Program-made: the position numbers and the translations under genes
The notes under the pieces: model-generated
Seen by the model: the letters and a program-made list of their open reading frames with translations, nothing else
Databases searched by the model: none
Told to the model about the DNA's origin: nothing
NCBI GenBank assembly: GCA_022511445.1
Contig: JAFLVE010000012.1
Coordinates: 26,514-90,513, forward strand
Source of the DNA: Clostridiales bacterium
Lineage (GTDB): Bacteria > Bacillota > Clostridia > Christensenellales > Pumilibacteraceae
Direction of reading: 5' to 3'
DNA length: 64,000 nt
In this document: in pieces, positions 5,481-60,222 of the stretch
Position numbering within the stretch: position 1 is the stretch's first letter
Layout of the letters: every line of letters begins with the position of its first letter

Positions 5481-5500
5481 TCTGTAAAGGAGAATAAACT

Positions 5501-29151: not shown

Positions 29152-29152
29152 A

Positions 29153-32235: not shown

Positions 32236-32248
32236 AAAGGAGATAAAA

Positions 32249-33714: not shown

Positions 33715-33715
33715 T

Positions 33716-34267: not shown

Positions 34268-34282
34268 AAAGAGGAGAAAAAC

Positions 34283-41247: not shown

Positions 41248-41256
41248 AGCCTTCTC

Positions 41257-42006: not shown

Positions 42007-42192
42007 ACTAACTCCGCACCGTATATGGCATAAAACTCCATATTACGCTTTTATACATTCAGTATATAATATAAGTTGCGGATAGTCAAGAGTTTTGAAA
42101 AAATAGACTTGTCGAATACCTGCTGCGGAGATATTGACAGCAAGGTGATATCGGGATATAATGTATTCGGATATTATAATTTCGGTGGAAAC

Positions 42193-42966
42193 ATGTTAAA
42201 CAGTTTTTCGAGAACGGAGCTTCTTTTGGGTAAGGATGGATTACAGCGGCTTAAACGCGCGCGCGTCGCCGTGTTCGGAATAGGCGGCGTGGGCGGTTAT
42301 GCGGTGGAAGCGCTCGCGCGCTCGGGCGTGGGCGCAATCGACATTATCGACGACGACAAGGTGTGCCTTACCAACATCAACCGCCAAATAATAGCAACCC
42401 GCAAGACGGTTGGAAAGTTCAAGGTGGACGTCGCCGCCGAAAGAATAGCCGAAATCAATCCCGAATGCGTTGTGACTAAGCATAAAACGTTTTATATGCC
42501 CGATACCGCCGACAGCTTTGACTTTACGCTATTCGACTACGTTATCGACGCGATAGATACCGTGACGGGGAAGATAGAGCTTGTCGTACAGGCGGCAAGG
42601 TCGAACACGCCTATTATAAGCTGTATGGGTGCGGGCAATAAGCTCGACCCGACTGAATTCGAGGTGGCGGATATTTACAAAACGTCGGTGTGTCCGCTGG
42701 CGCGCGTCATGCGGCGCGAGCTAAAAAAGCGGGGGATAGAAAGGCTTAAGGTCGTTTACTCCAAGGAAGAGCCGGTCCGCCCCGACGACGGAGCCGAAAT
42801 AAGCTGCAAAAATAACTGTATCTGTCCGCCCGGAACCGCGAGAAAATGCACGGAGCGGCGGGATATTCCGGGCAGCGTCGCGTTCGTCCCCGCCGTCGCC
42901 GGGCTTATAATCGCGGGAGAAGTGATTAAAGACCTTTGCGCCGGAGCGCCTTCGGCGAGTGAATAG
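42193..42966 (+). CDS. tcdA: tRNA threonylcarbamoyladenosine dehydratase (ThiF/E1-like)
   Basis: FSRTELLLGKDGLQRLKRARVAVFGIGGVGG...IDDDKVCLTNINRQ is typical of TcdA/CsdL. The ATG at 42193 is chosen over the longer ORF. Confidence 0.85.
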   Translation: MLNSFSRTELLLGKDGLQRLKRARVAVFGIGGVGGYAVEALARSGVGAIDIIDDDKVCLTNINRQIIATRKTVGKFKVDVAAERIAEINPECVVTKHKTFYMPDTADSFDFTLFDYVIDAIDTVTGKIELVVQAARSNTPIISCMGAGNKLDPTEFEVADIYKTSVCPLARVMRRELKKRGIERLKVVYSKEEPVRPDDGAEISCKNNCICPPGTARKCTERRDIPGSVAFVPAVAGLIIAGEVIKDLCAGAPSASE

Positions 42967-45385: not shown

Positions 45386-45400
45386 TTGGAGGGAGTCAAG

Positions 45401-45877
45401 ATGACAGACGAAAAAAGTTTAAAACAGGCCAAAGCGGTTTACGGCGCACTTTGCGAAATGCTGAACGACCGTGGTTGGCGCTACGACAAAGACGAAGCGG
45501 GGTTGAGCATTTCGTGCAGCGCTCAGGGCGACGATTTGCCTATCGAGCTTCACATCAGGGTGGACACGCAGCGCAATCTTGTTTCGCTTCTGTCCCCGAT
45601 GCCGTTTACCGTTGCTCCTAACCGCAGGGACGCACTCGCGCTTGCGGTAAGTCGCGCAAACAACGGCATGGTAGACGGAAGCTTCGACTACGACTACGTA
45701 AACGGCCGTATCGTGTTCAGAATGACGTCGAGCTATCTCGAGAGTCTTATCGGCAAGAACATGTTCGAGTACATGCTTATGTGTGCGTGCTACACCATAG
45801 ACGAGTACAACGACAAGTTCCTTGTTGTAGCCAAAAACGAAATGTCGTTCGCCGAAATCGCGAACTACATTAAATAA
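45401..45877 (+). CDS. YbjN-family (T3SS-chaperone-like fold) protein, paralog 1
   Basis: KQAKAVYGALCEMLNDRGWRYDKD...LVSLLSPMPFTV...DGSFDYDY..GRIVFRMTSSY. ATG at 45401 follows GGAGGGAG. Confidence 0.65.
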   Translation: MTDEKSLKQAKAVYGALCEMLNDRGWRYDKDEAGLSISCSAQGDDLPIELHIRVDTQRNLVSLLSPMPFTVAPNRRDALALAVSRANNGMVDGSFDYDYVNGRIVFRMTSSYLESLIGKNMFEYMLMCACYTIDEYNDKFLVVAKNEMSFAEIANYIK

Positions 45878-45888
45878 GGAGGTAAATC

Positions 45889-46368
45889 ATGGTAGACGAG
45901 AAGAAATTAAAAAAGGCACAGACCGTGTACGAAACCCTGTGCGCGATGTTGGACGAAAAGAAATTCCATTACGACAAGCACCCGCAGGATTTGGTTATCA
46001 CCTTCGTTATGCACGGCGACGATATCCCCATGCAGTTTATAGTTAAGGTGGACGCGCAAAGAGATCTTGTTCGCGTAGTTTCGCCTATTCCCGGCGTAGA
46101 GTTCCCGACCGATAAGCGCCTTATCGGCGCAATCGCCACGTCCACAGCCAACTACAAGCTTGCGGACGGCAGCTTCGACTACGACTACGATACCGGCAAG
46201 GTGGCGTTCAGGCTCACGTCGAGCTACCTCGACAGCATAATCTCCAAACAGCTGCTCGAGTACATGATAGGCGTTTCCGGCTACACTATCGACGAGTTTA
46301 ACGACAAGTTCCTGTTGCTTGCAACGGGCGGCATGACGATTGACGACTTTGTCAAAAAGTACAAATAA
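45889..46368 (+). CDS. YbjN-family protein, paralog 2
   Basis: Collinear with paralog 1 (KKAQTVYETLCAMLDEKKFHYDKH...DGSFDYDYDTGKVAFRLTSSY). Confidence 0.65.
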   Translation: MVDEKKLKKAQTVYETLCAMLDEKKFHYDKHPQDLVITFVMHGDDIPMQFIVKVDAQRDLVRVVSPIPGVEFPTDKRLIGAIATSTANYKLADGSFDYDYDTGKVAFRLTSSYLDSIISKQLLEYMIGVSGYTIDEFNDKFLLLATGGMTIDDFVKKYK

Positions 46369-46439: not shown

Positions 46440-46487
46440 AAAGAATTATATGATTTACGGTTAAGTTCGGTTAGGGGATACGGTTTT

Positions 46488-47138
46488 TTACGGTTTGAAG
46501 CTACGGAGAAGCTTACATAGGAAATCGTTTTCGGTAAAGGAAGGGTTATTAAAAATCAGCGAGTCGCGGATTTTTTTGCCCTCGCGCGTGCGGATTTTCT
46601 TGTCGGAAACTTCGTTCAGCCATTCGAGGCAGGATTCTTTCGTGTATTTTACACGCCCGTCGACGCAATATATAAAATATCTGTGTACGCCTTGTATATA
46701 ATCGATTTCCTTTGCGATTTTGGCATTGATGTTTTGCGGGTTTCCCGACTCCATGTCCTTCCACAGTTCGTCCAGTTTATCGAAAAGGGCGACATTGTCG
46801 CGACCCGATTTAGCCGCCTCCAAAAACGTGTGAACGGATTGATATTCGCGGCGCTTATCCTCGGCGCTTTTCGTGCCGCGTATTTTATCGCCGATATCTA
46901 TTTCCCCGAAGTCGTGTATCATTACCAAAAATACGGTTAAATCCTTATCGTAATCTTTATAAAGCTCGTCGGAAGCGTTCAGCTCCGTTTTATCGGGCAG
47001 GAGGCACAACAAGATAACCGCGGAGCTCAGCGAGTGCGAGGAAACCGATTCGGGGTTATCTATGCCTCGTTTTATCCAGCCCGAGCGTTTTATTTCATCT
47101 ATTTTAAGATACTTGTTCAGCGCTTCGATAATATTCAT
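46488..47138 (-). CDS. YfbR/HDDC2-type HD-domain phosphohydrolase (5'-deoxynucleotidase-like)
   Basis: KRSGW, PESVSSHS and VMIHDFGEIDIGD (HD at nt 46911-46916), plus a downstream EIDY acidic motif. The start overlaps the upstream stop codon (TAATG). Confidence 0.85.
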   Translation of the reverse strand: MNIIEALNKYLKIDEIKRSGWIKRGIDNPESVSSHSLSSAVILLCLLPDKTELNASDELYKDYDKDLTVFLVMIHDFGEIDIGDKIRGTKSAEDKRREYQSVHTFLEAAKSGRDNVALFDKLDELWKDMESGNPQNINAKIAKEIDYIQGVHRYFIYCVDGRVKYTKESCLEWLNEVSDKKIRTREGKKIRDSLIFNNPSFTENDFLCKLLRSFKP

Positions 47139-50100
47139 TACGACACATCTCCTTTATTTTTGGGTGCGTTACCGTAAATTTCGTTAAAGTATTTTACGAT
47201 ATACTTATTCCTGTCAAACCAATCGTTGTCTTTGTCGCGTTTTTTTACTTCGGCGGGGAAATTATAAATGCTTTTTAGAGTGCCGATAAAGTCCTCGTTA
47301 TTCGCCAAGCTTTTGAATTTGTACTTGCGCGTTTTCAGCAAACTGCAATACGTTACCATTTGCAGGATAAGAATAGGCTTTATCGCTTTTTGCTCTTTGG
47401 CGGAAGCGATACCTCCCGAGATATCCATCCGCAGCTTGCGGAAGGTGTTGACCCCTCTTGTCGTATCCTTGTCCTCGTACCCTTCGAAGCTGCCCGTTAG
47501 GTCGAGGCATTTGTAGGTGTCGCCGTAGTAGTCTAAGTGGAAGGCGCGGTTGACGTCGTCCGCCATCGGATTGTACGTTTTTTCGGAAGTGTAAACTATC
47601 GTCTTAATGTAATCCAAAAACTTTTTCTCGACGCCCAGCGATCCCAAGGCGATTGCTATGCATCTGCTTAAGAACAGGTTTTGTCTCGTTTCGGCGTCCG
47701 ACATGGTACGATTGGAATTGTCGCCGCTCATCGATTGGTTTAAACCGTCGTTCAAGCGTTTTTCCATTTTATTTAACAGGTTGACGGAAGCGGTCAAATA
47801 CCTTTCGCCCAAAACGCGCAGAATGTACGAGACCTGACATTCGAACTTGGGGTAGTTGTTGATTAAATCGATATTGCGGTCGCAGAACAGAATCAGGTTG
47901 TACACGTCGTTGTTGGAAAGCTCGCACGTTACGAATCTGTTAACGCTCTTGGGTAAGAACAGATTAAGCCTGCCGCCGAGGTTGCGTATAACTGTATATT
48001 CGTTTTGCGGAAGTATTGTCTCTCTTAACAGCGTGATGTAGTGGCGTGCGACAAGATAGTCGATCATGCTTCTGTGCTCTCTTGCAAGCGTCCAGTTGTT
48101 GTTGCAAAGCTCGCTGTAATTAAAATGCTGGTTTTCGTACTCGAAGGCGTAAACGCTTTTCGCCAAATCGTCGTATTGCTTTTTGTCCATTTCCGGCGTG
48201 TATTTTAATAGCCCGATGTCGTACAAGGTAAGAATGTCTTTGCTGTAATTTTTTAGGTAGTCCGTACGCTTCAAAACTTTAATCAGCCAGTATGCGTCCA
48301 GCGTGTAAAAGTTCAAACGGAAGAGTTCGGCGCGTATGGCGGTTGCCGTTTCGCGGTCCGACGGACCGCCGCACACAATAGAGCAATTTTGTATAAACTC
48401 GATACACTCTTCCGTTCTTGCGATATTCATCGGACTTATGTTGATGACGGGGGTGTCGTCCATTTCCCCGGGGGCGAGCTTTTTCAAATCGTGGAACGCC
48501 GATTTTTCCTTTTGCTCGGAGTTTAGCGTGTAAAGAATATCGCAGCCGAGGATAAGCCGATAATCTTTAACGTCGTTCTCGAGGAAGGAGCATATTTGAG
48601 TATATATATGATTTATGCCGCAGTGAAATTCCCGAACGTTGTCAATAAAGAACAAAGGTTTTTCCTTATTGCTGTCCTTGTGCAGGTCTATTATTTCCTT
48701 AATCTTTTCAAAGTCGTCGGTTATGGCGCCGATGTCGAAGTCGTTTTCGTATTTGGAAACGTCTATGTAAAACACGTTGGAGTTGATGTTGACCGACTGC
48801 AATTTAAGGCAGACGTATTGAAGCAGTCTGTTTTTGTACGAGCCGATAGGACCGTTGATTTTAAGTATAAGTCCTTTTTTGCGGTTTTTGGCTATGAGTG
48901 TTTCTATGCCTTCGTGCAAATCCTCGTCGAGCGTGTTAAGTATTCCGACAATTTTGGTTTTGATATACCGCGGAGCGTCGGGACCGCCTACGGGCGGCAC
49001 GGTTGTAATATCCTTGAATATTTTGGAAAAGTTTTTAAGATTGGCGTTTACGGCGGGGATAATGTCGCTCCATTTTATAAGATTGTATTCGAGCCCGCGT
49101 ATCGTGCTTACCCCGCATTTTTCGGCCAGAAAGCTTTTTACGTTGGAGCTGAAAAACTTGGATGAAAAGGAAAACGCGTTGGGCGGTTGCTTTTGCGCTT
49201 CGCCGGGCGTGTCGGAGGCGGAAACCATAATAAGCGGGCTTTGCGTATCGAAAATGTCGTCCGCTTTTTCGAGTAAATACAGCAGGGTGGGCTCGGCGAC
49301 GTCCGACGAGAGGAATTTTTCCTTTTCGAATTTGACGGTGATTTTACTCGGCAGGACTATATTTCCGTATTTTACCGTTCCGCCGGTTTTTTTGCCTTTG
49401 GCATTAGCGTCGCTTAGCACGACCGTGTATCTTATGTAGTTTTTGTTAATGGCGGGGCGGAGGAAGGGGTGCAACGGGATAAAAGCGGCTATGCGCGGAT
49501 GTTTGTCGATAAACTTTTTCTTTTTAATTTTTTCGATTTTTATTCCGCTGTATTCCTTGCCGACCAATTCCTTAATAAGCTTATCGTCGTCGGTTATTTT
49601 GCGGTAGTCGGGCGACTTCGGCGCGGACGCCAAAGCGTAAACAAAATCTTTCAGGAAGTCTATTACGTCCGACTGATAATATTGCTTGTCGGACACGTTT
49701 TGAAAATGGTTTATCCTGCCGAGCAGGTCCATGCAAATGGGCAGAAACTCCCAGGACGGTCTGGTCTTGTGATTTTCCTCGAAGTTTTCTATCGTGTGGA
49801 AGATAAACTGGAGCTCCCTTGCAAAGTTACCTTGCTCCTCGCTCCAAAATGTGTATCTGGGCAGGTTGTAGAAAATCGCGATCTCGTCGCCCGAGTTGAC
49901 TATGTTTTCGAGGACGGGCACGGACAGCTTGGTTATCCTGCCTATCTTGCAGCAGTACGACAGGGCGGAGCGCAGATACTTTTTGTCGTAGGGCCCCTTT
50001 TTTGTGTTTTCAAAGTAGGCGCGAAGCTCGTAAATTTTTACTTCCTCGTTAAGCTCAAGCTGTTTGACGGTTCGCCTTATTCCGTTAAGAAGCTTGGGGT

Positions 50101-50656
50101 TTGTAAAAACCTTTTTAAGCGCGTCGAATAAGCGGTCGTAAAAAGCCTTGTCCTTAACGTCGTAGCGGATTAGCTTTTGGGTGGTTATCTCGACGTTGTC
50201 GAAAACAACCTCGTCGTTGTCGTTTATTATGTTCGCCGCTTTTAACACGTTTTTTATTTGGGGATTGCCGGTTATCGCTCCGACGCCCCAGATTTTTTTA
50301 ATCGTGTTCCTTACGTCGTTAAGCTCGATGTTAAGCAGGTTGAGAAGCGACTTGTACCGCCTTAAATGCTGTAGGCGCGAAATAAATACCGAGTCGCCGA
50401 TAAAACCTGCGACAACACCTATTAACCCGCCTAAAAAGTCCGCGAGATACGTATAGTCGGGCTCTGCCTCCGTGCCTATATTGAGTATGGGAAAAAACGT
50501 GAAAACCCAAAACAGCAATCGAATCAGCCCTATAAAAAAAGCAACCGACAGCGCCAGCGTCAGTAAAGCGTACAGCCACAGCAACGCTTTGTGCTTGCGT
50601 ATACTGTAGTAACTCAGCTTGTCCGCCGATTGTTGTGATTTATCTCTTTTACGCAT
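47138..50656 (-). CDS. membrane-anchored NACHT/STAND-like giant protein with degenerate Walker A
   Basis: N-terminal TM helices (ALLWLYALLTLALSVAFFIGLIRLLFWVFTFFPIL and FLGGLIGVVAGFIGDSVFI). NTPase core: LILKINGPIGSYKN (48830-48853), PLFFIDNVREF, RLILGCD, INISPMNIARTEECIEFIQN. Helical C-terminal ~400 aa. I chose the start at M24 of the ORF because the first 23 codons contain the promoter. Confidence 0.85.
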   Translation of the reverse strand: MRKRDKSQQSADKLSYYSIRKHKALLWLYALLTLALSVAFFIGLIRLLFWVFTFFPILNIGTEAEPDYTYLADFLGGLIGVVAGFIGDSVFISRLQHLRRYKSLLNLLNIELNDVRNTIKKIWGVGAITGNPQIKNVLKAANIINDNDEVVFDNVEITTQKLIRYDVKDKAFYDRLFDALKKVFTNPKLLNGIRRTVKQLELNEEVKIYELRAYFENTKKGPYDKKYLRSALSYCCKIGRITKLSVPVLENIVNSGDEIAIFYNLPRYTFWSEEQGNFARELQFIFHTIENFEENHKTRPSWEFLPICMDLLGRINHFQNVSDKQYYQSDVIDFLKDFVYALASAPKSPDYRKITDDDKLIKELVGKEYSGIKIEKIKKKKFIDKHPRIAAFIPLHPFLRPAINKNYIRYTVVLSDANAKGKKTGGTVKYGNIVLPSKITVKFEKEKFLSSDVAEPTLLYLLEKADDIFDTQSPLIMVSASDTPGEAQKQPPNAFSFSSKFFSSNVKSFLAEKCGVSTIRGLEYNLIKWSDIIPAVNANLKNFSKIFKDITTVPPVGGPDAPRYIKTKIVGILNTLDEDLHEGIETLIAKNRKKGLILKINGPIGSYKNRLLQYVCLKLQSVNINSNVFYIDVSKYENDFDIGAITDDFEKIKEIIDLHKDSNKEKPLFFIDNVREFHCGINHIYTQICSFLENDVKDYRLILGCDILYTLNSEQKEKSAFHDLKKLAPGEMDDTPVINISPMNIARTEECIEFIQNCSIVCGGPSDRETATAIRAELFRLNFYTLDAYWLIKVLKRTDYLKNYSKDILTLYDIGLLKYTPEMDKKQYDDLAKSVYAFEYENQHFNYSELCNNNWTLAREHRSMIDYLVARHYITLLRETILPQNEYTVIRNLGGRLNLFLPKSVNRFVTCELSNNDVYNLILFCDRNIDLINNYPKFECQVSYILRVLGERYLTASVNLLNKMEKRLNDGLNQSMSGDNSNRTMSDAETRQNLFLSRCIAIALGSLGVEKKFLDYIKTIVYTSEKTYNPMADDVNRAFHLDYYGDTYKCLDLTGSFEGYEDKDTTRGVNTFRKLRMDISGGIASAKEQKAIKPILILQMVTYCSLLKTRKYKFKSLANNEDFIGTLKSIYNFPAEVKKRDKDNDWFDRNKYIVKYFNEIYGNAPKNKGDVS

Positions 50657-50684
50657 TGTTAATCCTTTGTATAACGGTATACTT

Positions 50685-50713
50685 ATTATAGCACCGATTG
50701 CGGCGCATTTCAA
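50685..50713 (-). promoter_or_regulatory. promoter of the AT-rich cassette (TTGAAA-17-TGcTATAAT)
   Basis: Read on the minus strand: -35 at 50713-50708, -10 at 50690-50685, TG at 50693-50692. An AAAGGA ribosome-binding site and the ATG at 50656 follow. Confidence 0.6.
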
Positions 50714-50835
50714 TAGAAAGTACAAAATTTTCGCGTACGGAGCGAAGGCGGTTTCGTTTTTACGGGCAGATGTCCCGAATATGGTACATTGGGCGTGATA
50801 TATTGAGGTACACTCTTAAATGGGGAGGTCTTCGC

Positions 50836-53800
50836 GTGAAAAAACCGAGCGTTACGAAAGGACAAATATCGCTCTTCGAATCGGGCAATCTGGCGCTTAA
50901 GCTTGACGGACCCGATTATTCCGTTACCGATTTGCCGCTCGATTGGGAAGATCTTTTCGCGCCCGAGGCGCAGAGCCGAGACGGGCAGGTGGACGAAATT
51001 TCGGACGCGCTCGTTATGAGCCTTACCACCTTCGGAAAGGTGGATATTGAATACATATCCAAGGTTACCGGCGAGACGTTAAAGTCGGTAATCGTGGCGC
51101 TGCGCGGCTCCATCTATCAAAACCCCGATACTTGGTGCGAGTGCTTTTATAAGGGCTGGGAGACGAGCGAGGAGTATCTTTCGGGCAATCTTATAAGGAA
51201 GCTTAACGCCGCCGAGGCCGCCAACAGAATTTACCGCGGACGGTTTAACGACAATATCGAGGCGATAAGGCGCGTTTTGCCCGACGCAGTTGCGACAAAG
51301 GACATTTACATTACGCTCGGCTCGCCCTGGGTGCCCACCGATATAATAGACGACTTTATCACGTACATGCTTAATCTAAAGCGCGTTCCTTTTATTGGCA
51401 CCACGCACGACGAGATAACCGGCTCGTGGGAGATTCCCAACAAAAGCTTTTACAAATACAGCGTGCGCTCCGAGAGCACGTACGGCACGCCGCGGCTTTC
51501 CGCGCTCTATATACTCGAGCGGACGCTTAACATGAAGACGGTTGCCGTTACCGACGAGATAGTTTCCTACACCAACACGAGCGGAAAAAAGCGGATAATA
51601 AACAAATCGGAAACGGTTTCCGCGCTCGAAAAGCAAGCCAAAATGATAAGCGACTTTCAGCGCTGGGTGTGGCGTGACGAGGAGCGGAAGGCGCGCCTCG
51701 AGGAAATTTTCGAAAACAAGTTTTCTTGCGTGCGAAGGAGAGTTTTCGACGGCTCGTTTCTGACTTTCCCCACGATGAATCCGTCGGTAAAGCTGTATCC
51801 CTACCAAACGGACGCGGTGGCGCGCATTCTGTTTACTCCCAACACACTCCTCGCTCACGACGTGGGGTCGGGCAAGACCTACGTCATGATAGCGGCGGGC
51901 ATGGAAAAGCTCCGTATGGGGCTTTCCAAAAAGAATATGTACGTCGTGCCCAACAACATTGTGGGGCAGTGGCAAAAGATATTTTACGAGATGTATCCCG
52001 GTGCAAAGCTGCTCGTCGTCGAGCCGAAGTCTTTCACGCCCGAAAAGCGCAAGAGCGTAGTGCGTTCGATTCGCGACGACAAGTACGACGGCATTATTAT
52101 TGCGTACAGCTGTTTTAAGCAAATCCCGCTGTCCAAACAGTATTACTTAAGCGCGCTAAAAAGGGAGCGCGCACAGCTCGAAGCGCAGTTAAAGCAGCAG
52201 GGCAAGGCGACGACTCGGCTTGAAAAAAAGTGCGCCGCCATTAATAAAAAGCTTAACGAGCTTGCCGCCGAGCTCGATACGGGCGGCGACGAAATATACT
52301 TTGACGAGCTGGGCGTTACGGGACTGTTTGTGGACGAAGCGCACAACTTTAAAAACGTACCGCTCGACACCAAGGTGAACAACGTTTTGGGCATAAGCGA
52401 CGGGTCGAGCCGTCAGTGTAAAGAAATGCTCGACAAGGTGCGCGTCGTTCAGCGCCAAACGGGCGGCAAGGGGGTTGTACTCGCAACGGGTACGCCCATT
52501 ACCAACTCCGTAACCGACGTGTTCGTAATGCAGCAGTACCTGCAAAGCGGCGAGCTCGGCTTACTCGATCTTCAGTCCTTCGACAGCTGGCTCGGCATGT
52601 TTGCGGAGCGCGTGACCGAATTCGAGATAGACGTGGACACCAACAGCTACCGCCTTGCGACCCGCTTTGCAAAATTCCACAACCTGCCCGAGCTTACCGC
52701 AATGCTCGCCGCCATAGCCGATTTCCACGCCGTGGACGTAACCGACGGCATACCCGAAACGGACGGCTATAACGACGCGCTTATCCAAAAAACGCCCGCG
52801 CTTGCGTCCTACCTCGAGGAGATATCGCGCCGTGCGGACGAGGTGCGCCACGGCAGTATAGACCGCAAGGAAGACAACATGCTTAAAATCACCACCGACG
52901 GCAGAAAGGCGGCGCTTGACATAAGGCTTGTAAAGGCTGCGCTCCCCACCTACCAAATGAAGGTGGTGCGGTGCGCGGAAAACGTGGCGGACATATATCA
53001 CAGGACGAGCGAGCAAAAAAGCACGCAGCTTGTTTTTTGCGACACTTCGACCCCCAAAGCGGGCTTTAACGTTTACGACGAGGTAAAGCGCTTGCTTATA
53101 AGCTTTGGCGTTCCCGAAAAGCAGATTGCGTATATTCACGACGCGGACACCGAAAAAAAGCGCGAAAAGCTGTTCGCATCGGTGAGGAAGGGTGAGATAA
53201 GAGTTTTGATCGGCTCGACTTTTAAGCTCGGGCTCGGAGTAAACGTTCAGGACAGGCTTATCGCTCTCCACCACCTCGACGTGCCCTGGCGACCTGCCGA
53301 CATGACTCAGCGCGAGGGGCGAATACTTCGTCAGGGCAACCTCAACAAAAAAGTCAAAATCTTCCGCTACATCACCGAGGGCTCCTTCGACGCGTACTCG
53401 TGGCAGCTTCTCGAGACAAAGGCGAGGTTTATAGCCGACCTGCTTTCGGGCTCGTTTACGGGCAGGAGCGGCGGCGACATAAGCGACACCGTGCTCGACT
53501 ACGCGGAGGTAAAGGCGCTTGCCGTGGGCAATCCGCTCGTCAAAAAACGGGTGGAGACCGCAAACGAGCTTACGCGTTATCTCACCCTTCAGCGCAAGCT
53601 GATAGATACGAGAATCCACCTCGAAAAGGTGCTTATGGAAATACCCGCCAAGCGCGAGCGCACCCGCGACCTTATAGAAAAGTGCAAAAGCGACGCCAAA
53701 GCCTATTATAAGTGGTTAAAAGCCAATCCCGAGCCGACGGATACCGCCGGGAAAAAGCGGGAGGCGGAGCAGAGGAAGGCGCTTCGCGAGAAAATTCACG

Positions 53801-54162
53801 AGGCGGTTTCATCCAATATTCTCGAAACGACCGAGCGGCAATTGTTGTCGTACAAGGGCTTTACCGTCGTTCTCCCCGCCAACATGACGCCGTACACCCC
53901 GTACGTGTATTTGGAGCGCGAGGGCAGATATTACGTAGAGCTGGGCGATACCGAGGTGGGCAATCTCCAAAGGATAGACAACTACCTTAACGGCTTGGAG
54001 GATCACCTCGTCAGGCTGAAAGAGGGCTTAAGTAAGCTCGACCGCGACGAGGTTGAAATTCGTGCCGAGCTTGTCAAAAAGACGAGCTACGCCGACAAGA
54101 TAGAGGCGTGCCAAAAGCGTTTGGAATCAATAGACAAAAAACTGGGAGCTAAAGAAAAATGA
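50836..54162 (+). CDS. SNF2-family helicase resembling the helicase half of mobile-element methylase-helicase proteins (no methylase motif seen)
   Basis: GTG at 50836 lies 7 nt after a GGGGAGG. Motif I LAHDVGSGKTY, motif II LFVDEAHNFKN, motif III ATGTPITNS, motif VI QREGRILRQGN. Long coiled C-terminus. Confidence 0.9.
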   Translation: MKKPSVTKGQISLFESGNLALKLDGPDYSVTDLPLDWEDLFAPEAQSRDGQVDEISDALVMSLTTFGKVDIEYISKVTGETLKSVIVALRGSIYQNPDTWCECFYKGWETSEEYLSGNLIRKLNAAEAANRIYRGRFNDNIEAIRRVLPDAVATKDIYITLGSPWVPTDIIDDFITYMLNLKRVPFIGTTHDEITGSWEIPNKSFYKYSVRSESTYGTPRLSALYILERTLNMKTVAVTDEIVSYTNTSGKKRIINKSETVSALEKQAKMISDFQRWVWRDEERKARLEEIFENKFSCVRRRVFDGSFLTFPTMNPSVKLYPYQTDAVARILFTPNTLLAHDVGSGKTYVMIAAGMEKLRMGLSKKNMYVVPNNIVGQWQKIFYEMYPGAKLLVVEPKSFTPEKRKSVVRSIRDDKYDGIIIAYSCFKQIPLSKQYYLSALKRERAQLEAQLKQQGKATTRLEKKCAAINKKLNELAAELDTGGDEIYFDELGVTGLFVDEAHNFKNVPLDTKVNNVLGISDGSSRQCKEMLDKVRVVQRQTGGKGVVLATGTPITNSVTDVFVMQQYLQSGELGLLDLQSFDSWLGMFAERVTEFEIDVDTNSYRLATRFAKFHNLPELTAMLAAIADFHAVDVTDGIPETDGYNDALIQKTPALASYLEEISRRADEVRHGSIDRKEDNMLKITTDGRKAALDIRLVKAALPTYQMKVVRCAENVADIYHRTSEQKSTQLVFCDTSTPKAGFNVYDEVKRLLISFGVPEKQIAYIHDADTEKKREKLFASVRKGEIRVLIGSTFKLGLGVNVQDRLIALHHLDVPWRPADMTQREGRILRQGNLNKKVKIFRYITEGSFDAYSWQLLETKARFIADLLSGSFTGRSGGDISDTVLDYAEVKALAVGNPLVKKRVETANELTRYLTLQRKLIDTRIHLEKVLMEIPAKRERTRDLIEKCKSDAKAYYKWLKANPEPTDTAGKKREAEQRKALREKIHEAVSSNILETTERQLLSYKGFTVVLPANMTPYTPYVYLEREGRYYVELGDTEVGNLQRIDNYLNGLEDHLVRLKEGLSKLDRDEVEIRAELVKKTSYADKIEACQKRLESIDKKLGAKEK

Positions 54163-55274
54163 ACGAAATAAAACAATCGGACATACCGTCTATGTCGGTA
54201 GGGCGAGCGGTGGAATTACTTTCGAGGTCGTACACCGCCGTTATAAAAAAGGGACTGCCTATGCGCACCTTTCCTTCCGTTATGCTTTGGGGCCCGCCGG
54301 GTATAGGTAAATCGCAGGCGGTAAGGCAGATAGCGAGGGAGATAGAGTGTATCGGGAAAAAGGCGGTTGTAACAGACGTTCGCCTGCTCCTGTTTAACCC
54401 TATCGACTTAAGGGGAATCCCCACCGCAAACGCCGACAAAACGCTTGCCGTGTGGCTGAAGCCGCAGATTTTTAAGATGGACGAGAGCGATAACATTATA
54501 AACATTCTCTTCCTCGACGAGATTTCGGCGGCGCCGCAATCGGTGCAGGCGGCGGCGTATCAGATAGCGCTCGACAGGGTGGTAGGCGAACACCGCCTCC
54601 CCGAAAACTGTATCGTTATCGCGGCGGGAAACCGCGTAACCGACAAGTCGGTAGCATTCCGCATGCCCAAAGCGCTTGCAAACAGGCTGTTGCATATAGA
54701 GATAGAAATGAGCTTCGAGTCCTGGAAGGAATGGGCGGTAGGCGCGGGGATAAACGACAAGGTATTGGGCTTTTTATCGTTCAGGCAAAACTACCTCATG
54801 TGCTTCGACCCTTCGTCCAACGACCACGCTTTTGCAACGCCGCGCTCGTGGGAGATGGTAAGCAACGTTCTTAACGGCGTGGATAGCGACGTGGACAATA
54901 TGTATTCGCTTATCGCGGGGCTTGTGGGAGTGGGCGTTGCGGTGGAGTTCCGCACCTGGGCGCAGGTGTACGACTCTCTTCCGTCCATAGAGGAAATATT
55001 CGCGGGCAAGATGCCGCCCGTGCCGAGAAACACGGCGACCCTTTACGCGCTCGTTTCGGCAATGACGGCGTATGCGCGCGACCATAGGACGGATATGAAC
55101 AAGATAGCCAACTCCATTCGTTACGCCAATTCGCTTCCGCCCGATTTTTCGGTAGTGCTGTTAAAGGACTACATGTACATAGAAAAGGGGTACAAGGAAA
55201 AGCTTATGCGTATCCCCGAGTTTAACAAGTGGCTGCAAACCAAAGGGAGCTTACTGAATGGCTCTCTCCGATGA
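54159..55274 (+). CDS. MoxR/AAA_5-type ATPase
   Basis: Walker A LWGPPGIGKSQ, Walker B ILFLDEISAAP, then IAAGN. ATGA overlap with the SNF2 gene. Confidence 0.9.
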   Translation: MNEIKQSDIPSMSVGRAVELLSRSYTAVIKKGLPMRTFPSVMLWGPPGIGKSQAVRQIAREIECIGKKAVVTDVRLLLFNPIDLRGIPTANADKTLAVWLKPQIFKMDESDNIINILFLDEISAAPQSVQAAAYQIALDRVVGEHRLPENCIVIAAGNRVTDKSVAFRMPKALANRLLHIEIEMSFESWKEWAVGAGINDKVLGFLSFRQNYLMCFDPSSNDHAFATPRSWEMVSNVLNGVDSDVDNMYSLIAGLVGVGVAVEFRTWAQVYDSLPSIEEIFAGKMPPVPRNTATLYALVSAMTAYARDHRTDMNKIANSIRYANSLPPDFSVVLLKDYMYIEKGYKEKLMRIPEFNKWLQTKGSLLNGSLR

Positions 55275-56598
55275 AAAAATACGTTCCTACGTAAAGCGGC
55301 TATTGCTCTCCCGTATGCGGATTCTGTGCGACCACGGCTTTTACGGTCTGCTTCTTATGCACATGAACTTCGCTATCGACGAAAACTGCGACACCGCGGC
55401 GACCGACGGAGTAAAAATTTACTTCGGACCCGAGTTCCTCGACGACTTGTCCGACGGCGAGCTCGATTTTGTAATGATGCACGAAATTATGCACGTAGTG
55501 CTTCAGCACTGTCTGCGCGGCGGGGAAAGAGACCGAGAGCAGTTTAACATAGCGTGCGATATCGTCGTAAACTCCAATATCCTACTTTCAAACAACAACG
55601 ATATATCGAGTATAGAGCTTAAAAAGTACGGCGTCGCAATGCACGTTGCGCCTAACGGAAAGGAAGGGCACAACTACACCGCCGAGGAGGTTTACGCAAT
55701 GCTCCCGCAAGACAGCGCGGCGCAAGCCGGCGGAAACAGCGGCAGTCGCGGTAAAACCGGCGGCGACGGCGGAAAAGGGAAAGACAGAAGCGGCAACGGC
55801 GGTAAAGGTAACGGCAAAAAAAGCGACGGCGGCACGGGAAGTAACGGCGGCGGAAAGGTAAATGGCGGCGGAGGCGAGATTGACGGCGCGCAATGGGACG
55901 ACCATTCGCGCTGGGGGAGTGTGGACGACGACGGGCTTCTTAAGGATTTATGGATTAAGAGGTTTTCGGACGCGCTCGAGTCGATGCGGGTGCGCGACCC
56001 CTCCAACGAGAGGGGGACTATTCCCGCGTTTGCGAAACGGCTTTTGGAGGAACTAGTAAAGCCGCAGACCGATTGGCGCACTATACTTAACGAGTTTGTT
56101 CAAGAGGAGATTACCGACTATTCGTTTTCTCCGCCCGACAGGAGATACGACGGACCGTTTATGCTTCCCGATTTTAACGAAAAGGAAGATACGGTCGAGG
56201 ATATTCTGTTTATGATAGACACCTCGGGGTCGATGTCGGACGGCATGATAACGGCGGCGTTCTCGGAGGTAAAGGGGGCTATCGAGCAGTTTAACGGCAG
56301 GCTTAAAGGTTGGCTCGGATTTTTCGACGCGGCTATAATCGAGCCGACTCCCTTTGAGAACGTGGAGGAGTTCGAGGTTATTAAGCCGGCGGGCGGCGGG
56401 GGTACCGACTTCGGGATAATATTCAAGTACGTGGAAAAATTTATGGAAGACTCTCTTCCCGCAAGCATAATCATTCTTACCGACGGCTACGCGCCTTTCC
56501 CGCCCGAAGTCAGTGCGCACGGCATTCCCGTGCTGTGGCTGTTAAACAACACGGACGTAACCCCGCCCTGGGGCAAAACGGCGATGATTACGGTGTAG
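55258..56598 (+). CDS. Zn-metallopeptidase-like (HExxH) plus vWA (MIDAS) protein, DUF2201-type, with G/K/N-rich linker
   Basis: VMMHEIMHVVLQH, then the linker GGNSGSRGKTGGDGGKGKDRSGNGGKGNGKK, then FMIDTSGSM (DxSxS MIDAS). 17-nt overlap with the MoxR gene. Confidence 0.85.
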   Translation: MALSDEKIRSYVKRLLLSRMRILCDHGFYGLLLMHMNFAIDENCDTAATDGVKIYFGPEFLDDLSDGELDFVMMHEIMHVVLQHCLRGGERDREQFNIACDIVVNSNILLSNNNDISSIELKKYGVAMHVAPNGKEGHNYTAEEVYAMLPQDSAAQAGGNSGSRGKTGGDGGKGKDRSGNGGKGNGKKSDGGTGSNGGGKVNGGGGEIDGAQWDDHSRWGSVDDDGLLKDLWIKRFSDALESMRVRDPSNERGTIPAFAKRLLEELVKPQTDWRTILNEFVQEEITDYSFSPPDRRYDGPFMLPDFNEKEDTVEDILFMIDTSGSMSDGMITAAFSEVKGAIEQFNGRLKGWLGFFDAAIIEPTPFENVEEFEVIKPAGGGGTDFGIIFKYVEKFMEDSLPASIIILTDGYAPFPPEVSAHGIPVLWLLNNTDVTPPWGKTAMITV

Positions 56599-56603
56599 GA
56601 ATA

Positions 56604-56632
56604 TTGACTTTTCGTACCGTTTTAGGTACAAT
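56604..56632 (+). promoter_or_regulatory. sigma-A-type promoter (TTGACT-17-TACAAT) for the WYL regulator
   Basis: Begins 6 nt after the vWA stop codon and lies 37 nt before the WYL gene start. Confidence 0.55.
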
Positions 56633-56668: not shown

Positions 56669-57652
56669 ATGGCGGATTTCGAACCTAAAAAGAACGCACT
56701 GTTACACATATTGCAGATTTTTCAAAAGTACAGCGACTGCGATCATCTTTTGACGCAGGACGATATACTCCGCTATCTTTCGCGCGACTACGGCATAGAG
56801 CTCGAGCGTAAGGCGGTGGGGCGAAACATTTCGTACCTTAAGGAAGCGGGCGTGGAGATAGAGTCGAGCAAAGCGGGAAGCTATCTTTCCTACCGCGATT
56901 TTGACGACAGCGAGCTCCGCCTTCTTGTAGACGGCGTGCTTGCAAGCAGGTACATAACGGCGAAGCATTCCAAGGCGTTAATCGAAAAGCTTTGCAATCT
57001 TTCCAACGTATATTTCCGCTCGCACGTTAAAAACGTGTGCTCTGTCGATCAGTGGAGCAAGTCGGACAACAGCCAGTTTTTTCTTAACATTTCGCTTGTC
57101 GACGAGGCGATAGAATCCGCCAAGCAGATTTCGTTTACCTATAACAGATACGGCACGGACAAGCGGCTTCATAAAGGCGGGACGCACACGGTAAGCCCGT
57201 ACCAGCTTATACTGCACAATCAGCGTTACTATCTTATGGCGTACCACGAGGGGAGGAAGCACATGAGCTATTTCCGCCTCGACAAAATAACCAACATCAA
57301 AATTTCGGAAACGCCCGCAACCGATCTCCGTTCCGTCGAGGGGTATCAAGGCGGGATTGACTATAAGCGGTTTTCCTCCGCGCTCCCGTACATGTTTTCG
57401 GACGAGCCGGAGTTAATCACGTTTTCGATAGACGGCGATTGGATGATAGACCAAATAGTCGATTGGTTCGGCTTCGACTTCAGGATAGAGGACAAGGACG
57501 GGAAAAAGACGGTAACCGTAAAGGCGAGCCCGCTCGCAATGGAGTATTGGGCTATGCAGTACCTTAACAACGTCGAGGTGCTTTTCCCCTTATCACTTCG
57601 CGAAAAGATTATAAGCAATCTTTCCAACGCCGCGGAAAGGTACAAAAAGTAA
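56669..57652 (+). CDS. wHTH-WYL-WCX transcriptional regulator
   Basis: N-terminal winged HTH (LLHILQIFQKYSD...ILRYLSRDYGIELERKAVGRNISYL). WYL core ISFTYNRYG...VSPYQLILHNQRYYLMAY...YFRLDKI. Confidence 0.85.
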   Translation: MADFEPKKNALLHILQIFQKYSDCDHLLTQDDILRYLSRDYGIELERKAVGRNISYLKEAGVEIESSKAGSYLSYRDFDDSELRLLVDGVLASRYITAKHSKALIEKLCNLSNVYFRSHVKNVCSVDQWSKSDNSQFFLNISLVDEAIESAKQISFTYNRYGTDKRLHKGGTHTVSPYQLILHNQRYYLMAYHEGRKHMSYFRLDKITNIKISETPATDLRSVEGYQGGIDYKRFSSALPYMFSDEPELITFSIDGDWMIDQIVDWFGFDFRIEDKDGKKTVTVKASPLAMEYWAMQYLNNVEVLFPLSLREKIISNLSNAAERYKK

Positions 57653-57700: not shown

Positions 57701-59536
57701 ATGAACACCGAAGACATATTGCTCGAGCCACTTTCGGCATACGAAGCTCATTACGGAAAAACGTTTTCCGATAACGCGACGGAGCACTTCGACGGGCTTG
57801 TCGCGCGCTCCGGCATAAGCGTGGAGGAAAACCGCGCCACCGTTCGCGAGTACAATACGGAAAGGGCGCACGTAAGCGCAACGGAAAGCTCTATTTCCTC
57901 CAAAAAGGCGCTTCGCGTGTTTTTGATAGTCGTTTGCGTGGTGTGTTTCGTCGCGGCGGCGGTTGGGATTGCCGCGCTAGTTACGAAAAACACGATTGCG
58001 GGGATAATAATGCTTGCCGCGGGAATACCCGTCGGCGCGGGCATGATTCTCATTATAAAGCTTGTCATTGCGCCCAAGATCAGCGCGCTTGGAAAAATCC
58101 TCGACGAAAGGCGTCAAAAGGCTGACAAAATACTGTCTCGGGCTTGGGAGCAGATGCGCCCGCTTAACGACCTTTTCGAGAGCAATACGACAAAAATGCT
58201 TATCGAAAAGACGGTGCCGATTATAAAAGTCGACGACATTTTTTCCATGCGGCGTTACGACTACCTGCGGGGCAAGTACGGCTTCGGCGAAAAAACCGAC
58301 CCCCGCCGCTCCACAACCGCGCTTGTTTCGGGCGAGATTATAGGCAATCCGTTCGTCATAGAAAGGGAGCTTGTCCAGACGATTATAAACAAAACGTACA
58401 CGGGCTCGATTGTAATTCATTGGACGGAAACTCATACCGACTCGGACGGTCACACTCACACCGTATCGCACAGCCAAACGCTTACGGCAAGCGTGACTAA
58501 GCCGGCGCCCGACTACAACGAGTACACGCGACTTATCTACGGCAACGACGCCGCGCCCGACCTCGTGTTCTCGCACGAGCCGACTCACGCGGAACGGTGG
58601 TCCGAAAAGGAGCTCGAGCGCAAGGTCAATTCGGGATTAAAGGACATTCGGAAACAGCAGAAAAAGGCGCTCGAAAAGGGCGGCGCCACGTTTACCGAGA
58701 TGGGCAACGCCGAGTTCGACGTTTTGTTCAACGCCTTCGACCGCAACAACGAGGTGCAGTTCAGGCTTCTGTTTACGCCGCTCGCGCAAAAGAACATGCT
58801 TGCCTTAATGAAAGACAAAAACCATTTCGGCGACGACTTTTATTTCGATAAGCGCGGGTGCTTAAACTACATAATGAGCGAGCACGCGGCAAGATGCGAC
58901 CTCGACGCCGATTACAGGCGCTATTATTCGTACGACGTAGACGAGGCGCAAAAAAAGTTTATGGACTTTAACACTTCGTTCTTTAAAAACATATACTTCG
59001 ATTTTGCGCCGCTCCTTTCCATTCCGCTGTATCAGCAGCACAAGCCGCAGGAATACAAATATAGAGACAACTACGAGCGTAACTACACAAGCTACGAGAC
59101 CGAATGTGCGGTAAACCGTTTGGGCGAAAAGGCGTTTGCGCCGGACGACAGCGCGACCCGCTCCATACTTAAAACAAGCTTTATGTTTAAGGACGGTCAG
59201 TCCGACGCGGTGGAGGTTACGGCGTACGCTTTCCGTTCGGAGCGGCGGGTGGATTACATCAGCACGCTCGGCGGCGACGGGTTTTTCCACGACGTGCCGG
59301 TGTACTGGGACGAGTACATTCCCGTAGAAAGGCGCAGTACCGTAAAAATCAAAGGCCTCGGTATCGAGGACAGCGAGTTTGCGCGCGCCTCCGCCGTCGG
59401 CGGACCGCTTGAAAATATTATGGCGTCGCTTCCGGTCCGCGCCTACGGAAAAGGCTTACTGTGCTGTTTGACCGAGCCCGACGCGCCGTTTGATTCGCTG
59501 TTTTCGGGACTTAACTTAACGGAAAAAACCCAATAA
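57701..59536 (+). CDS. two-TM hypothetical protein (possibly DUF3137-like LemA partner)
   Basis: TM helices VFLIVVCVVCFVAAAVGIAALV and IAGIIMLAAGIPVGAGMILIIKLVIA, followed by a ~480-aa soluble region with no motif I recognise. Confidence 0.7.
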   Translation: MNTEDILLEPLSAYEAHYGKTFSDNATEHFDGLVARSGISVEENRATVREYNTERAHVSATESSISSKKALRVFLIVVCVVCFVAAAVGIAALVTKNTIAGIIMLAAGIPVGAGMILIIKLVIAPKISALGKILDERRQKADKILSRAWEQMRPLNDLFESNTTKMLIEKTVPIIKVDDIFSMRRYDYLRGKYGFGEKTDPRRSTTALVSGEIIGNPFVIERELVQTIINKTYTGSIVIHWTETHTDSDGHTHTVSHSQTLTASVTKPAPDYNEYTRLIYGNDAAPDLVFSHEPTHAERWSEKELERKVNSGLKDIRKQQKKALEKGGATFTEMGNAEFDVLFNAFDRNNEVQFRLLFTPLAQKNMLALMKDKNHFGDDFYFDKRGCLNYIMSEHAARCDLDADYRRYYSYDVDEAQKKFMDFNTSFFKNIYFDFAPLLSIPLYQQHKPQEYKYRDNYERNYTSYETECAVNRLGEKAFAPDDSATRSILKTSFMFKDGQSDAVEVTAYAFRSERRVDYISTLGGDGFFHDVPVYWDEYIPVERRSTVKIKGLGIEDSEFARASAVGGPLENIMASLPVRAYGKGLLCCLTEPDAPFDSLFSGLNLTEKTQ

Positions 59537-59550
59537 AGGAGAAAAATATT

Positions 59551-60222
59551 ATGGCAAACGAACTCGACGAAATGAACGGGCCCGTTCTCGAACAGGGCAA
59601 CGACGTTCACGTCATTGCAAAAAAGCTGCCCGTAACGCTTACGGCGGGCTCCAAGGTCTTTGACGTTATCTGGTGGTTTCTGCCCCCTCTTATCGGCGGA
59701 ATCATTTGGTGGGTAATGAAGACCAAGGCAAGAAGCTACCTTCAGCAATTACAGCAAAAGCTTCAGCACGACGCGTCGCAAATCGACAACTACCTCGAGC
59801 AGCGCGTTCAAATCCTTAAAAACTGCGCTCGGCTTGTGGATAAAGCGATCGACCTCGATAAGGACACGTTTGAAAAGATTGCATTGTACCGCTCGGGCAA
59901 CTCCGCAGACGGCGACGCGGCGCGGAACGAGTACGCCACCAAGATAGACGAGGTGGGGCGCTCCATCAACATCGCCGTGGAGAGTTATCCCGACCTCAAA
60001 GCGCACCAAGAGCTTGCCGAGGCCATGCAGCAAAACGCATACCTCCAGCGCGAGATAACCGCCGCGCGCGAGGTTTATAACGACACGGTAAACGTTTGGA
60101 ACCGCGAAATCTTCGCATGGCCGACCAAAGCGATAGTCGCCGCCAAAGCGGGGTACACGACGCGCATTCCGTTTATCGCCGACAAGGAAACAAGGGAAGC
60201 CGCGCGCGGGACCTTCTTCTAA
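59551..60222 (+). CDS. lemA: LemA-family membrane protein
   Basis: One TM helix, then ...ESYPDLKAHQELAEAMQQNAYLQREITAAREVYNDTVNVWNREIFAWP, the LemA signature. Confidence 0.9.
   Translation: MANELDEMNGPVLEQGNDVHVIAKKLPVTLTAGSKVFDVIWWFLPPLIGGIIWWVMKTKARSYLQQLQQKLQHDASQIDNYLEQRVQILKNCARLVDKAIDLDKDTFEKIALYRSGNSADGDAARNEYATKIDEVGRSINIAVESYPDLKAHQELAEAMQQNAYLQREITAAREVYNDTVNVWNREIFAWPTKAIVAAKAGYTTRIPFIADKETREAARGTFF

Follow-up and report, generated by a model that had tools for sequence, protein, structure and literature searches.

In this study, we followed up three overlapping genes in a 64,000-nucleotide stretch of contig JAFLVE010000012.1 of a Clostridiales bacterium; "the window" below means this whole stretch. 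The three genes, here called the trio (Table 1), encode an SNF2-family translocase, an AAA+ ATPase and a protein in which a metallopeptidase-like domain is joined to a von Willebrand factor A (vWA) domain. As the initial annotation had claimed, they lie on the same strand with overlapping ends. In the raw sequence, the ATGA at 54159-54162 supplies both the stop codon of the SNF2 gene and the start codon of the AAA gene, and the AAA and vWA genes share 17 nt (55258-55274), from the ATG at 55258 to the TGA at 55272-55274. The SNF2 gene starts with GTG at position 50836, and the database copy of its protein likewise has 1108 residues. The trio is thereby confirmed as a real, tightly coupled, co-translated operon. 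The 17-nt overlap had also been taken to imply stoichiometric co-expression, but what it shows is translational coupling, not stoichiometry.

The first protein belongs to the SWI2/SNF2 superfamily. It matches the Pfam models SNF2-rel_dom (31.1 bits, cutoff 24.9), Helicase_C (39.8 bits, cutoff 23.5) and ResIII, while precomputed Pfam annotation lists WH_1, DUF8437 and Helicase_dom. Of the helicase motifs claimed for it, the superfamily 2 set of motifs I (GSGKT344), II (DEAH500), III and VI (QxxGRxxR) was found, and these are kept in 64-65 of 65 members. An N-terminal winged-helix and DUF8437 region is followed by split RecA lobes with helical inserts, and the C-terminal part consists of a long coiled coil and a small beta domain. 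By sequence, this is the helicase module of DarB: PHROG 10089 ("DarB-like antirestriction") is matched with E = 3.7e-250 at profile positions 2106-3212 of 4647, and the homology spans residues ~51-1107, including the winged helix before the helicase and the C-terminal regions. The best phage and plasmid matches are 37-38% identical, at 95% coverage, to the C-terminal ~1100 residues of giant open reading frames (ORFs; for example 1955 and 3176 aa). In these giants the homologous helicase is preceded by Eco57I or N6_Mtase domains, so the statement in the initial annotation that the N-terminal part of the protein resembles the helicase half of methylase-helicase giants was right. So was its description as lacking a methylase. 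No [NDS]PP[YFW] motif occurs anywhere in the protein, and the giants' methylase portions, used as queries, found no match in the window or in 93 genome-derived trio loci; taken together, ~170 related loci showed no methylase. The protein thus has full-length homology to the DarB-like helicase, but neither the adenine methylase nor the encoding by a mobile element. Its closest relatives in large protein databases are themselves free-standing, 1100-1200 aa long and number in the thousands; in an exhaustive search of representatives, free-standing proteins of 1050-1250 aa were found at 40-54% identity, and giant fused forms dominated below ~40%. Models of known SNF2 defence proteins (DrmD, BrxH, ZorD, DpdE, HmaA) match only ~100 residues of the generic RecA2 C-lobe, NCBIfam scores against SNF2-type defence families reach 20-64 bits against cutoffs of 500-1500, and comparison of an SNF2 profile with PDB sequences gave ISWI-like, generic or marginal matches only.

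The description of the second protein as a MoxR ATPase held in part. The AAA_3 (30.7 bits, cutoff 27) and AAA_5 (24.1 bits, cutoff 22) models pass, and a vWA partner is present: an operonic vWA gene with a metal-ion-dependent adhesion site (MIDAS) accompanies the AAA gene in 76/76 genome loci and in all 9 metagenome loci with enough downstream sequence. The specificity of the MoxR label itself is marginal: a higher score (33.4 bits) goes to the generic AAA model, and the best PDB matches (AFG2, RFC, Msp1) are generic AAA+ proteins. An NCBIfam scan gave no MoxR match, and in the Pfam scan the bpMoxR model remained below its cutoff (17 vs 27 bits). The protein, whose Walker A motif is GPPGIGKS45, matches phrog_1297 (1e-95) and is 37% identical (E = 4e-55) to a "MoxR family ATPase", so named by PGAP, that precedes a VWA-like gene on pSYSA of Synechocystis. 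On pSYSA, this AAA/vWA pair lies among toxin-antitoxin and DUF262 genes.

In the third protein, the predicted order of an HExxH peptidase-like domain, a linker and a MIDAS vWA domain was fully borne out. DUF2201_N (127.7 bits, 8.5e-37) and DUF2201 (50.2 bits, 3.6e-13) are both above cutoff, phrog_1314 is matched at 1.4e-78, and a low-complexity G/K/N-rich linker occupies residues ~149-212. The peptidase motif HEIMH75 (HEIMHxxxxH) and a complete MIDAS with DTSGS321 are present, and the alignment is invariant at H75, E76, H79, H84, D321, S323, S325, T383 and D409. Foldseek on the predicted model confirmed the vWA fold and nothing else, retrieving NorD of the NorQD complex and the MIDAS domain of MDN1. 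The AlphaFold models of the vWA and SNF2 proteins were mediocre, with predicted local distance difference test scores of 59.5 and 55.6, because the alignments are shallow. The vWA profile matched PDB sequences only marginally (minigluzincin/M48, E~0.1), and neither the PDB sequence search nor Foldseek detected SprT/Wss1 similarity in the peptidase. PHROG labels the vWA protein "HNH endonuclease"; no domain found here supports this label, and we take it as a mislabel. Many RefSeq phage records also give this name to the DUF2201 protein, again with no supporting domain evidence found here.

Conservation of the trio and the two forms of its SNF2 module

When each GTDB species, represented by one genome, was scanned with the vWA alignment, 303 relatives were found among 185,579 species representatives. 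Gene order was counted in the best 80 of these 303 genome loci with flanks of up to 10 kb, most loci being metagenome-assembled genomes (MAGs). In 76/76 of them the vWA gene is immediately preceded by the AAA gene, and an SNF2 gene (at least 80% coverage) lies directly upstream of this pair in 56 of the 59 loci with enough sequence, which answers the question of conservation raised in the initial annotation. The remaining three loci were rejected as alternative architectures, since their partial SNF2 genes are secondary disruptions: in L013 an integrative mobilizable element (IME) with a Mob_Pre relaxase, ParB and a large serine recombinase sits inside the gene, in L066 a deletion has joined what remains of the gene to one for OTCase, and in L073 the copy carries a frameshift and is decaying. 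The overlaps are conserved as well, the SNF2 and AAA genes sharing 4 or 8 nt in 57/64 loci and the AAA and vWA genes 14 or 17 nt in 64/64. Between closely related pairs, the median ratio of non-synonymous to synonymous substitution rates (dN/dS) is 0.10, 0.07 and 0.10 for the three genes, and catalytic motifs are kept in 77/77 AAA and 84-86 of 86 vWA proteins, as they are in the SNF2 proteins. The trio is a conserved unit under purifying selection.

An IME was seen inside the SNF2 gene, near residue ~820, in two independent contigs (L013, 2399-6373; L087, 3651-8122), and its recombinase carries DUF4368. As the same insertion occurs twice, the SNF2 gene seems to be a target site of this recombinase.

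The partners of the SNF2 module are equally regular. We scanned metagenomes with an alignment of divergent free-standing SNF2 proteins and fetched 80 loci. In 11/11 loci with a free-standing, closed SNF2 ORF and sequence downstream of it, the AAA gene follows directly, and so does the vWA gene where the contig allows. Even the most divergent cases (L196, L240), with SNF2 proteins 38-40% and partner proteins 35-47% identical to those of the window, keep the trio. One apparent free-standing SNF2 gene without the pair (L203) was rejected, since it is 98% identical to a giant gene and has been cut short at its 5' end. Conversely, the AAA/vWA pair was found beside 0/52 giant methylase-fused SNF2 ORFs, and a DarB-type SNF2 gene within 10 kb of the phage AAA and peptidase-vWA pair in 0/79 IMG/VR loci outside the bacterial clade. 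Among plasmid records, the fused SNF2 occurs in 2082 and the vWA protein in 117, the latter in other taxa. There is thus a clean split, which we regard as the most interesting new fact of this study: the DarB-type SNF2 module is either fused to a methylase in phage and plasmid giants, or free-standing and accompanied by the AAA/vWA pair. In the free-standing form, the AAA/peptidase-vWA pair takes the partner position held by the methylase in the fused form. Since the fused SNF2 comes without the pair and the phage pair without SNF2, the trio joins two modules that are otherwise separate in mobile elements.

A conserved fourth gene after the divergent trios was considered and rejected, the ~1000-aa ORFs of L196 and L240 being unrelated to each other. 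The ORF directly 3' of the most divergent trio (L240, 13906-16959) encodes 1017 aa and has no detectable similarity to that of L196 or to the family of a 1195-aa protein encoded beside the window's trio (see below).

Hosts, genomic setting and neighbours

The trio is carried by Clostridia of the gut and rumen (Lachnospiraceae, Oscillospiraceae, Acutalibacteraceae, Christensenellales-type and numerous MAGs without a name); mis-binning or transfer may account for a few odd bins (Muribaculaceae, Eggerthellaceae, Absicoccus). Among the 2.9 million contigs of IMG/VR, 1 of 91 vWA relatives belongs to the trio clade, and this locus (L087) is listed there as viral because of the IME inserted in its SNF2 gene. 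An SNF2 motif scan of the same database yielded only two relatives, at 33% identity, and no plasmid-borne trio occurs among the plasmid records examined. The flanks vary from genome to genome, and their proteins of 170 aa or more fall into 396 distinct clusters. Of these, 129 drawn at random gave 150 Pfam families, none more than twice, in which ribosomal protein L1, LysRS, SpoVAD and histidine biosynthesis are mixed with TIR, Macro and HD. In the flanking clusters that we scanned, there is no recurrent replication, relaxase, type IV secretion system (T4SS), integrase, phage-structural or conjugation family. The companions that do recur are a WYL regulator, a GmrSD/SspE-like pair, a Doc toxin, a DUF2779/Cas4-like nuclease and a PcfJ-like protein, and further a soluble FtsH/IetA-like AAA protease (12 loci) and a SpoVK-like AAA protein with a 276-aa partner. 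In one genome (L167), the trio and the WYL gene form a compact insertion among metabolic genes. The initial annotation had considered that the trio might be confined to intact prophages or integrative conjugative elements and their replication modules; it lies instead in variable, defence-island-like chromosomal sites, not in phages or plasmids.

Table 1 Features of the trio and its surroundings in the window
Feature	Position	Strand	Description
Shine-Dalgarno sequence GGGGAGG	50822-50828	+	7 nt 5' of the SNF2 GTG start; read from the sequence
SNF2 gene	50836-54162	+	Free-standing DarB-type SWI2/SNF2 translocase, 1108 aa
AAA gene	54159-55274	+	MoxR-like AAA+ ATPase, 371 aa; Walker A GPPGIGKS, Walker B LFLDE
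Peptidase-vWA gene	55258-56598	+	DUF2201_N zinc-metallopeptidase, G/K/N linker, DUF2201 vWA; 446 aa
Promoter-like site of WYL gene, TTGACT-17-TACAAT	56604-56632	+	Consensus match only
Palindrome GTACC-N6-GGTAC	56614-56629		Candidate operator, within the WYL promoter-like site
Winged helix-turn-helix (wHTH)-WYL-WCX transcription regulator	56669-57652	+	WYL Pfam; PADLOC WYL 1e-23
SpoVK/CbbX/EccA-like AAA (43316-45385) and two YbjN-like genes	43316-46368	+	Contiguous with the trio in the closest relatives
HD_3 phosphohydrolase and 1195-aa orphan	46488-47138 and 47138-50725	-	In the 4.3-kb insertion
MAG1210-family protein, then LemA-family protein	57701-60222		NCBIfam 1.2e-195 and predicted N-terminal membrane segments (MAG1210); syntenic only in the closest relatives

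The gene directly downstream of the window's trio encodes a regulator of wHTH-WYL-WCX architecture, of the BrxR/CapW type. Pfam WYL scores 49.9 bits (cutoff 21.8) and WCX 19.6 bits, below its cutoff of 23.9, and comparison with PDB sequences gave only generic or marginal matches. WYL factors sense single-stranded DNA (ssDNA) and drive DNA-damage regulons. A WYL regulator occurs near the trio in 37/80 genome loci (~46%), on either side and in either orientation but often adjacent, and is likely to regulate the trio as a frequent but not obligatory companion. WYL regulators have been associated with defence islands (PMC9122601).

The closest relatives of the window's locus (L001 and L007; 81% DNA identity) share the order SpoVK-like AAA, two YbjN-like genes, trio, WYL, MAG1210-family gene, LemA and mgsA, and are syntenic with the window from the SpoVK-like AAA gene through mgsA; the L001 contig reaches further upstream and is syntenic from ThiF. 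Absent from both is a 4.3-kb low-GC insertion at 46442-50751 (45.5% vs 52-54% in the flanks), which holds the HD phosphohydrolase and 1195-aa genes. The 1195-aa orphan has no match in Pfam, PADLOC, NCBIfam or PHROGs, and the pair is a very rare but conserved, self-contained module, with four other clusters among 5.8 billion proteins. Elsewhere it lies, with no trio, in defence or mobile islands whose other genes include an AAA_15/21 ATPase, PDDEXK_4, HipA, a UvrD-like helicase, Vsr with Dcm, serine recombinases and integrases; a single fused, 976-aa version of the cassette lies directly 3' of the divergent L196 trio. We rejected the pair as a trio component and consider it a co-resident cassette, because the same family is found elsewhere without the trio. 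We take it for a defence-type cassette in its own right, a candidate new two-gene defence system, whose insertion marks the surroundings of the trio as an island hotspot.

The SpoVK-like AAA protein (670-690 aa, with an uncharacterised N-terminal half) is encoded within 10 kb of the trio in 22-27 of ~88 loci, including L002, L005, L008, L013, L016, L023, L031, L034, L039 and L054. Usually a 276-aa protein without Pfam match follows it, in place of which the window's lineage has the two YbjN-like genes. With so few loci and variable positions, it was not accepted as a fourth member of the core, and may instead form an accessory or a two-gene module of its own.

Three further regions of the window were noted. 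Genes for the large subunit of a phage terminase, with a T4-like N domain, and for a P22-like portal lie at 27.6-31.7 kb, and the ORFs after them have no annotation; the whole region (27667-35680), ~15 kb before the trio, is a prophage remnant or a cluster resembling a gene-transfer agent. A link between this piece and the trio was rejected, the closest relative having sugar-transport genes there instead. Positions 185-6700 encode a 1500-aa Upf1-like superfamily 1 helicase (DUF4011/AAA_11/AAA_12), with a weak C-terminal match to the restriction-endonuclease-like MTES_1575 (29 bits, below the 38-bit cutoff), then a 230-aa ORF and an AAA ATPase, in what is possibly another defence-type locus. 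At 39649-42966, genes for a PP2C phosphatase and a Ser/Thr kinase (- strand) lie beside a ThiF-family E1-like gene, a pairing that resembles TerY-P-type signalling modules, which have been discussed in connection with defence systems; no TerY vWA gene is present.

Proposed function and competing explanations

We favour the view that the three genes form one co-translated machine belonging to the chromosomal conflict (defence-island) gene pool of Clostridia; the exclusive coupling of SNF2 to the pair and the overlapping reading frames argue that they act as one. Whether this machine is a chromosomal conflict system, in which a double-stranded DNA (dsDNA) translocase works with an AAA+-controlled metallopeptidase, we judge to be about evenly balanced, and we prefer this reading because of the DarB-type and MoxR-vWA analogies together with the WYL link. 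As far as sequence and context can tell, the trio is most likely an undescribed anti-mobile-element system. No description of it was found in the literature on DUF2201, DUF8437, COG3864 and MoxR/vWA/SNF2 combinations, and PADLOC, NCBIfam and PHROGs gave no system-level identity.

By analogy with its fused relatives, the SNF2 protein, as the free-standing version of the translocase module, would bind and track DNA, most likely foreign or damaged, and would associate with the AAA+ ATPase and the vWA-peptidase in place of the methylase. The AAA+ hexamer would engage the MIDAS/vWA adaptor and remodel either the adaptor or a bound client, as in other MoxR-vWA pairs, and this remodelling would license the HExxH peptidase to cut the invader's DNA-bound protein or, in an abortive response, a host protein. 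The neighbouring WYL regulator, where present, would probably tie expression to ssDNA or DNA damage. In the light of domain content and strict co-occurrence, the "helicase-guided, MoxR/vWA-controlled protease" of the initial annotation is a reasonable proposal. A more specific version, which we think rather improbable, is a DNA-translocase-guided protein-removal machine, in which SNF2 would meet a bound protein and pass it via vWA/MIDAS to the AAA+ unfoldase and the zincin, to be cleaved. The trio would then be a prokaryotic functional counterpart of the p97/SPRTN-type proteolysis that acts on DNA-bound proteins, with a protease replacing the methylase as cargo. What is removed may be a terminal or DNA-protecting protein of a phage, a complex engaged in restriction or replication, or a protein cross-linked to DNA.

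The WYL, GmrSD/SspE-like, Doc and Cas4-like companions speak for a conflict system, as does the defence-type cassette inserted beside the window's trio. Also in favour are the strict co-occurrence of the three genes, their conserved overlaps and catalytic motifs, the low dN/dS, the near absence of the trio clade from the phage and plasmid records examined, the mixed flanks with TIR, Macro and HD, the IetA/FtsH-like neighbour, the compact insertion in L167, and the precedents of MoxR-vWA conflict systems and of WYL regulators in defence islands. Several observations weigh on the other side. The vWA protein is matched by none of the PADLOC models, and the SNF2 protein only through its generic C-terminal lobe. 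The nearest relatives of both modules serve mobile elements, being the anti-restriction DarB-like proteins and a phage early-region pair. The trio proteins are 60-75% identical across families and have low dN/dS, whereas immune sensors are often diversified. WYL regulators also control DNA-damage responses, and words common to the upstream regions of the SNF2 and WYL genes are not clearly above control. Since many flanks consist of plain housekeeping genes, guilt by association carries only moderate weight. Most loci come from MAGs.

The kinship with mobile-element proteins could also mean that the trio serves such elements, as cargo of integrated elements or a domesticated remnant whose translocase and protease would remove or degrade host restriction complexes on DNA in the manner of DarB and ArdC. 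The SNF2 protein is a DarB-type anti-restriction module, SNF2 of this type and a zincin peptidase are commonly combined in polyvalent proteins (PMC5512222), N4-like phages have the AAA/vWA pair in their early region, and some trio loci belong to long co-directional clusters with PcfJ-like, CHAP, resolvase, NT5C and LRR_5 genes. We nevertheless consider this unlikely, given that the methylase which defines the anti-restriction dyad is missing in all loci searched, that the clade is virtually absent from IMG/VR and from the plasmid matches examined, and that several loci have metabolic or housekeeping genes on both sides; the scanned flanking clusters have no recurrent family of relaxase, T4SS, integrase or phage-structural type, and WYL and GmrSD genes, such as those found adjacent, typically belong to host defence. 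We find it similarly doubtful that the trio is a WYL-regulated genome-maintenance system, in which the translocase would find stalled or cross-linked proteins for removal by the AAA+/peptidase, by analogy with p97/SPRTN-Wss1. The domain logic of DNA motor, AAA+ and zincin fits, as do the ssDNA-sensing WYL factor adjacent or nearby in almost half of the loci, the strong purifying selection with little diversification, and the RtcB, PolIII-alpha fragment and NT5C genes in some flanks. A core repair function would, however, be expected to be syntenic and widespread, whereas the trio is patchy (303 matches among the species representatives), varies in position between genomes, has now and then been lost or disrupted and shares its sites with genes for restriction and toxins, and its peptidase lacks detectable similarity to SprT/Wss1.

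Less probable again is a dedicated chaperone or maturation pair, with the AAA/vWA-peptidase assembling or processing a complex and SNF2 as its client or a mere neighbour. MoxR-vWA pairs are classically maturation factors, the fold search retrieved NorD and the MDN1 MIDAS domain, and a role in virion assembly has been proposed for the phage pair (PMC7824862); yet no candidate client complex is conserved in the scanned flanks, the exclusive coupling of SNF2 through overlapping reading frames argues for one machine, and in N4-like phages the pair lies beside RNA polymerase and dCTP deaminase genes and not in the structural module. Finally, the initial annotation had allowed for a relic of a mobile-element replication module, which would make the SNF2 gene a decaying remnant of a methylase-helicase gene with hitch-hiking neighbours. 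The missing methylase and the rare truncated copies (L066, L073) would suit this idea, but it is refuted by the conserved gene order, overlaps, dN/dS (0.07-0.10) and catalytic motifs, by the thousands of length-conserved free-standing homologues, and by the lack of recurring replication genes in the scanned flanks; we give it next to no credence.

If the trio is indeed a defence system, it would be a widespread addition to the immune repertoire of gut and rumen Clostridia, in which defence is poorly explored experimentally; it occurs in no fewer than 303 species representatives, and its SNF2 and vWA components each have protein clusters in the thousands. The either/or pattern suggests that one DNA-tracking motor has been re-used with different cargo on both sides of the host-element conflict, and it opens a concrete way to find out how DarB-type anti-restriction helicases work. 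The trio also offers a testable function for the DUF2201 peptidase-vWA/MoxR pair that is common in N4-like and jumbo phages.

Relation to known systems

With DISARM (DrmD), BREX (BrxHII), Zorya (ZorD), Dpd (DpdE) and Hma (HmaA), the trio shares an SNF2-family helicase in what those systems deploy as a multi-gene defence against mobile genetic elements, and none of their partner genes occurs in the annotated trio neighbourhoods examined. The likeness to two protease systems lies in general design, namely a nucleic-acid-directed or AAA+ module coupled to a protease in conflicts over DNA entry. ArdC, an anti-restriction protein of conjugative plasmids that acts for the plasmid, combines an ssDNA-binding domain with a zincin peptidase, and IetAS is a defence pair of AAA ATPase and protease. 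IetA models match only neighbouring AAA proteins and, weakly, the P-loop of the trio's AAA protein.

The phage pair of jumbo phages, N4-like Schitoviridae and Bacillus phage G consists of the same two families in the same order, AAA then vWA, at 21-50% identity to those of the trio, but has no DarB-type SNF2 in the up to 10 kb of flank covered. A virion-assembly role has been proposed for the jumbo-phage MoxR and metallopeptidase-vWA pair (PMC7824862), a role without counterpart in the trio. In the N4-like Escherichia phage ECBP1 (L176, 4923-7155), the pair was seen in the early/middle region beside RNAP1/2, dCTP deaminase and rIIA, and this placement in N4-like phages does not fit the published proposal.

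In the polyvalent proteins of phages and conjugative elements, the methylase-SWI2/SNF2(-LPD36) module is used to move a methylase along incoming DNA (PMC5512222), and by analogy the SNF2 protein of the trio should be a dsDNA translocase for a partner activity. DarB of phage P1 and this polyvalent module have the same helicase module, helical inserts and C-terminal region as the trio's SNF2 protein. Theirs, however, is fused in proteins of 1600-5700 aa with a methylase, is borne by phages or plasmids and never accompanies the pair (0/52), whereas that of the trio is free-standing (~1100 aa), has no methylase, is chromosomal without association to virions or transfer, and always comes with the AAA and peptidase-vWA genes.

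MoxR-vWA systems with peptidase effectors are conflict systems for which an NTP-dependent, regulated release of the effector has been predicted (PMC7159879, PMC12839542). The trio resembles their ternary form (PMC7159879) in its MoxR-like AAA+ protein, its vWA domain fused to a peptidase-type effector, its possession of a third component and its defence-island context. It differs in that its peptidase is an N-terminal zincin, which is rare there, in that the bpMoxR model stays below its cutoff, in that its hosts are unicellular gut Clostridia and in that its vWA-AAA pair is of the DUF2201, phage-type lineage. Their third component is VMAP, iSTAND, a beta-propeller or FtsH, none of which is conserved in the flanks of the trio, where the FtsH/IetA-like protease is occasional; that of the trio is a DarB-type SNF2 protein. 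We would class the trio with the MoxR-vWA-centred conflict systems, as a form in which the DarB-type SNF2 translocase is the third component.

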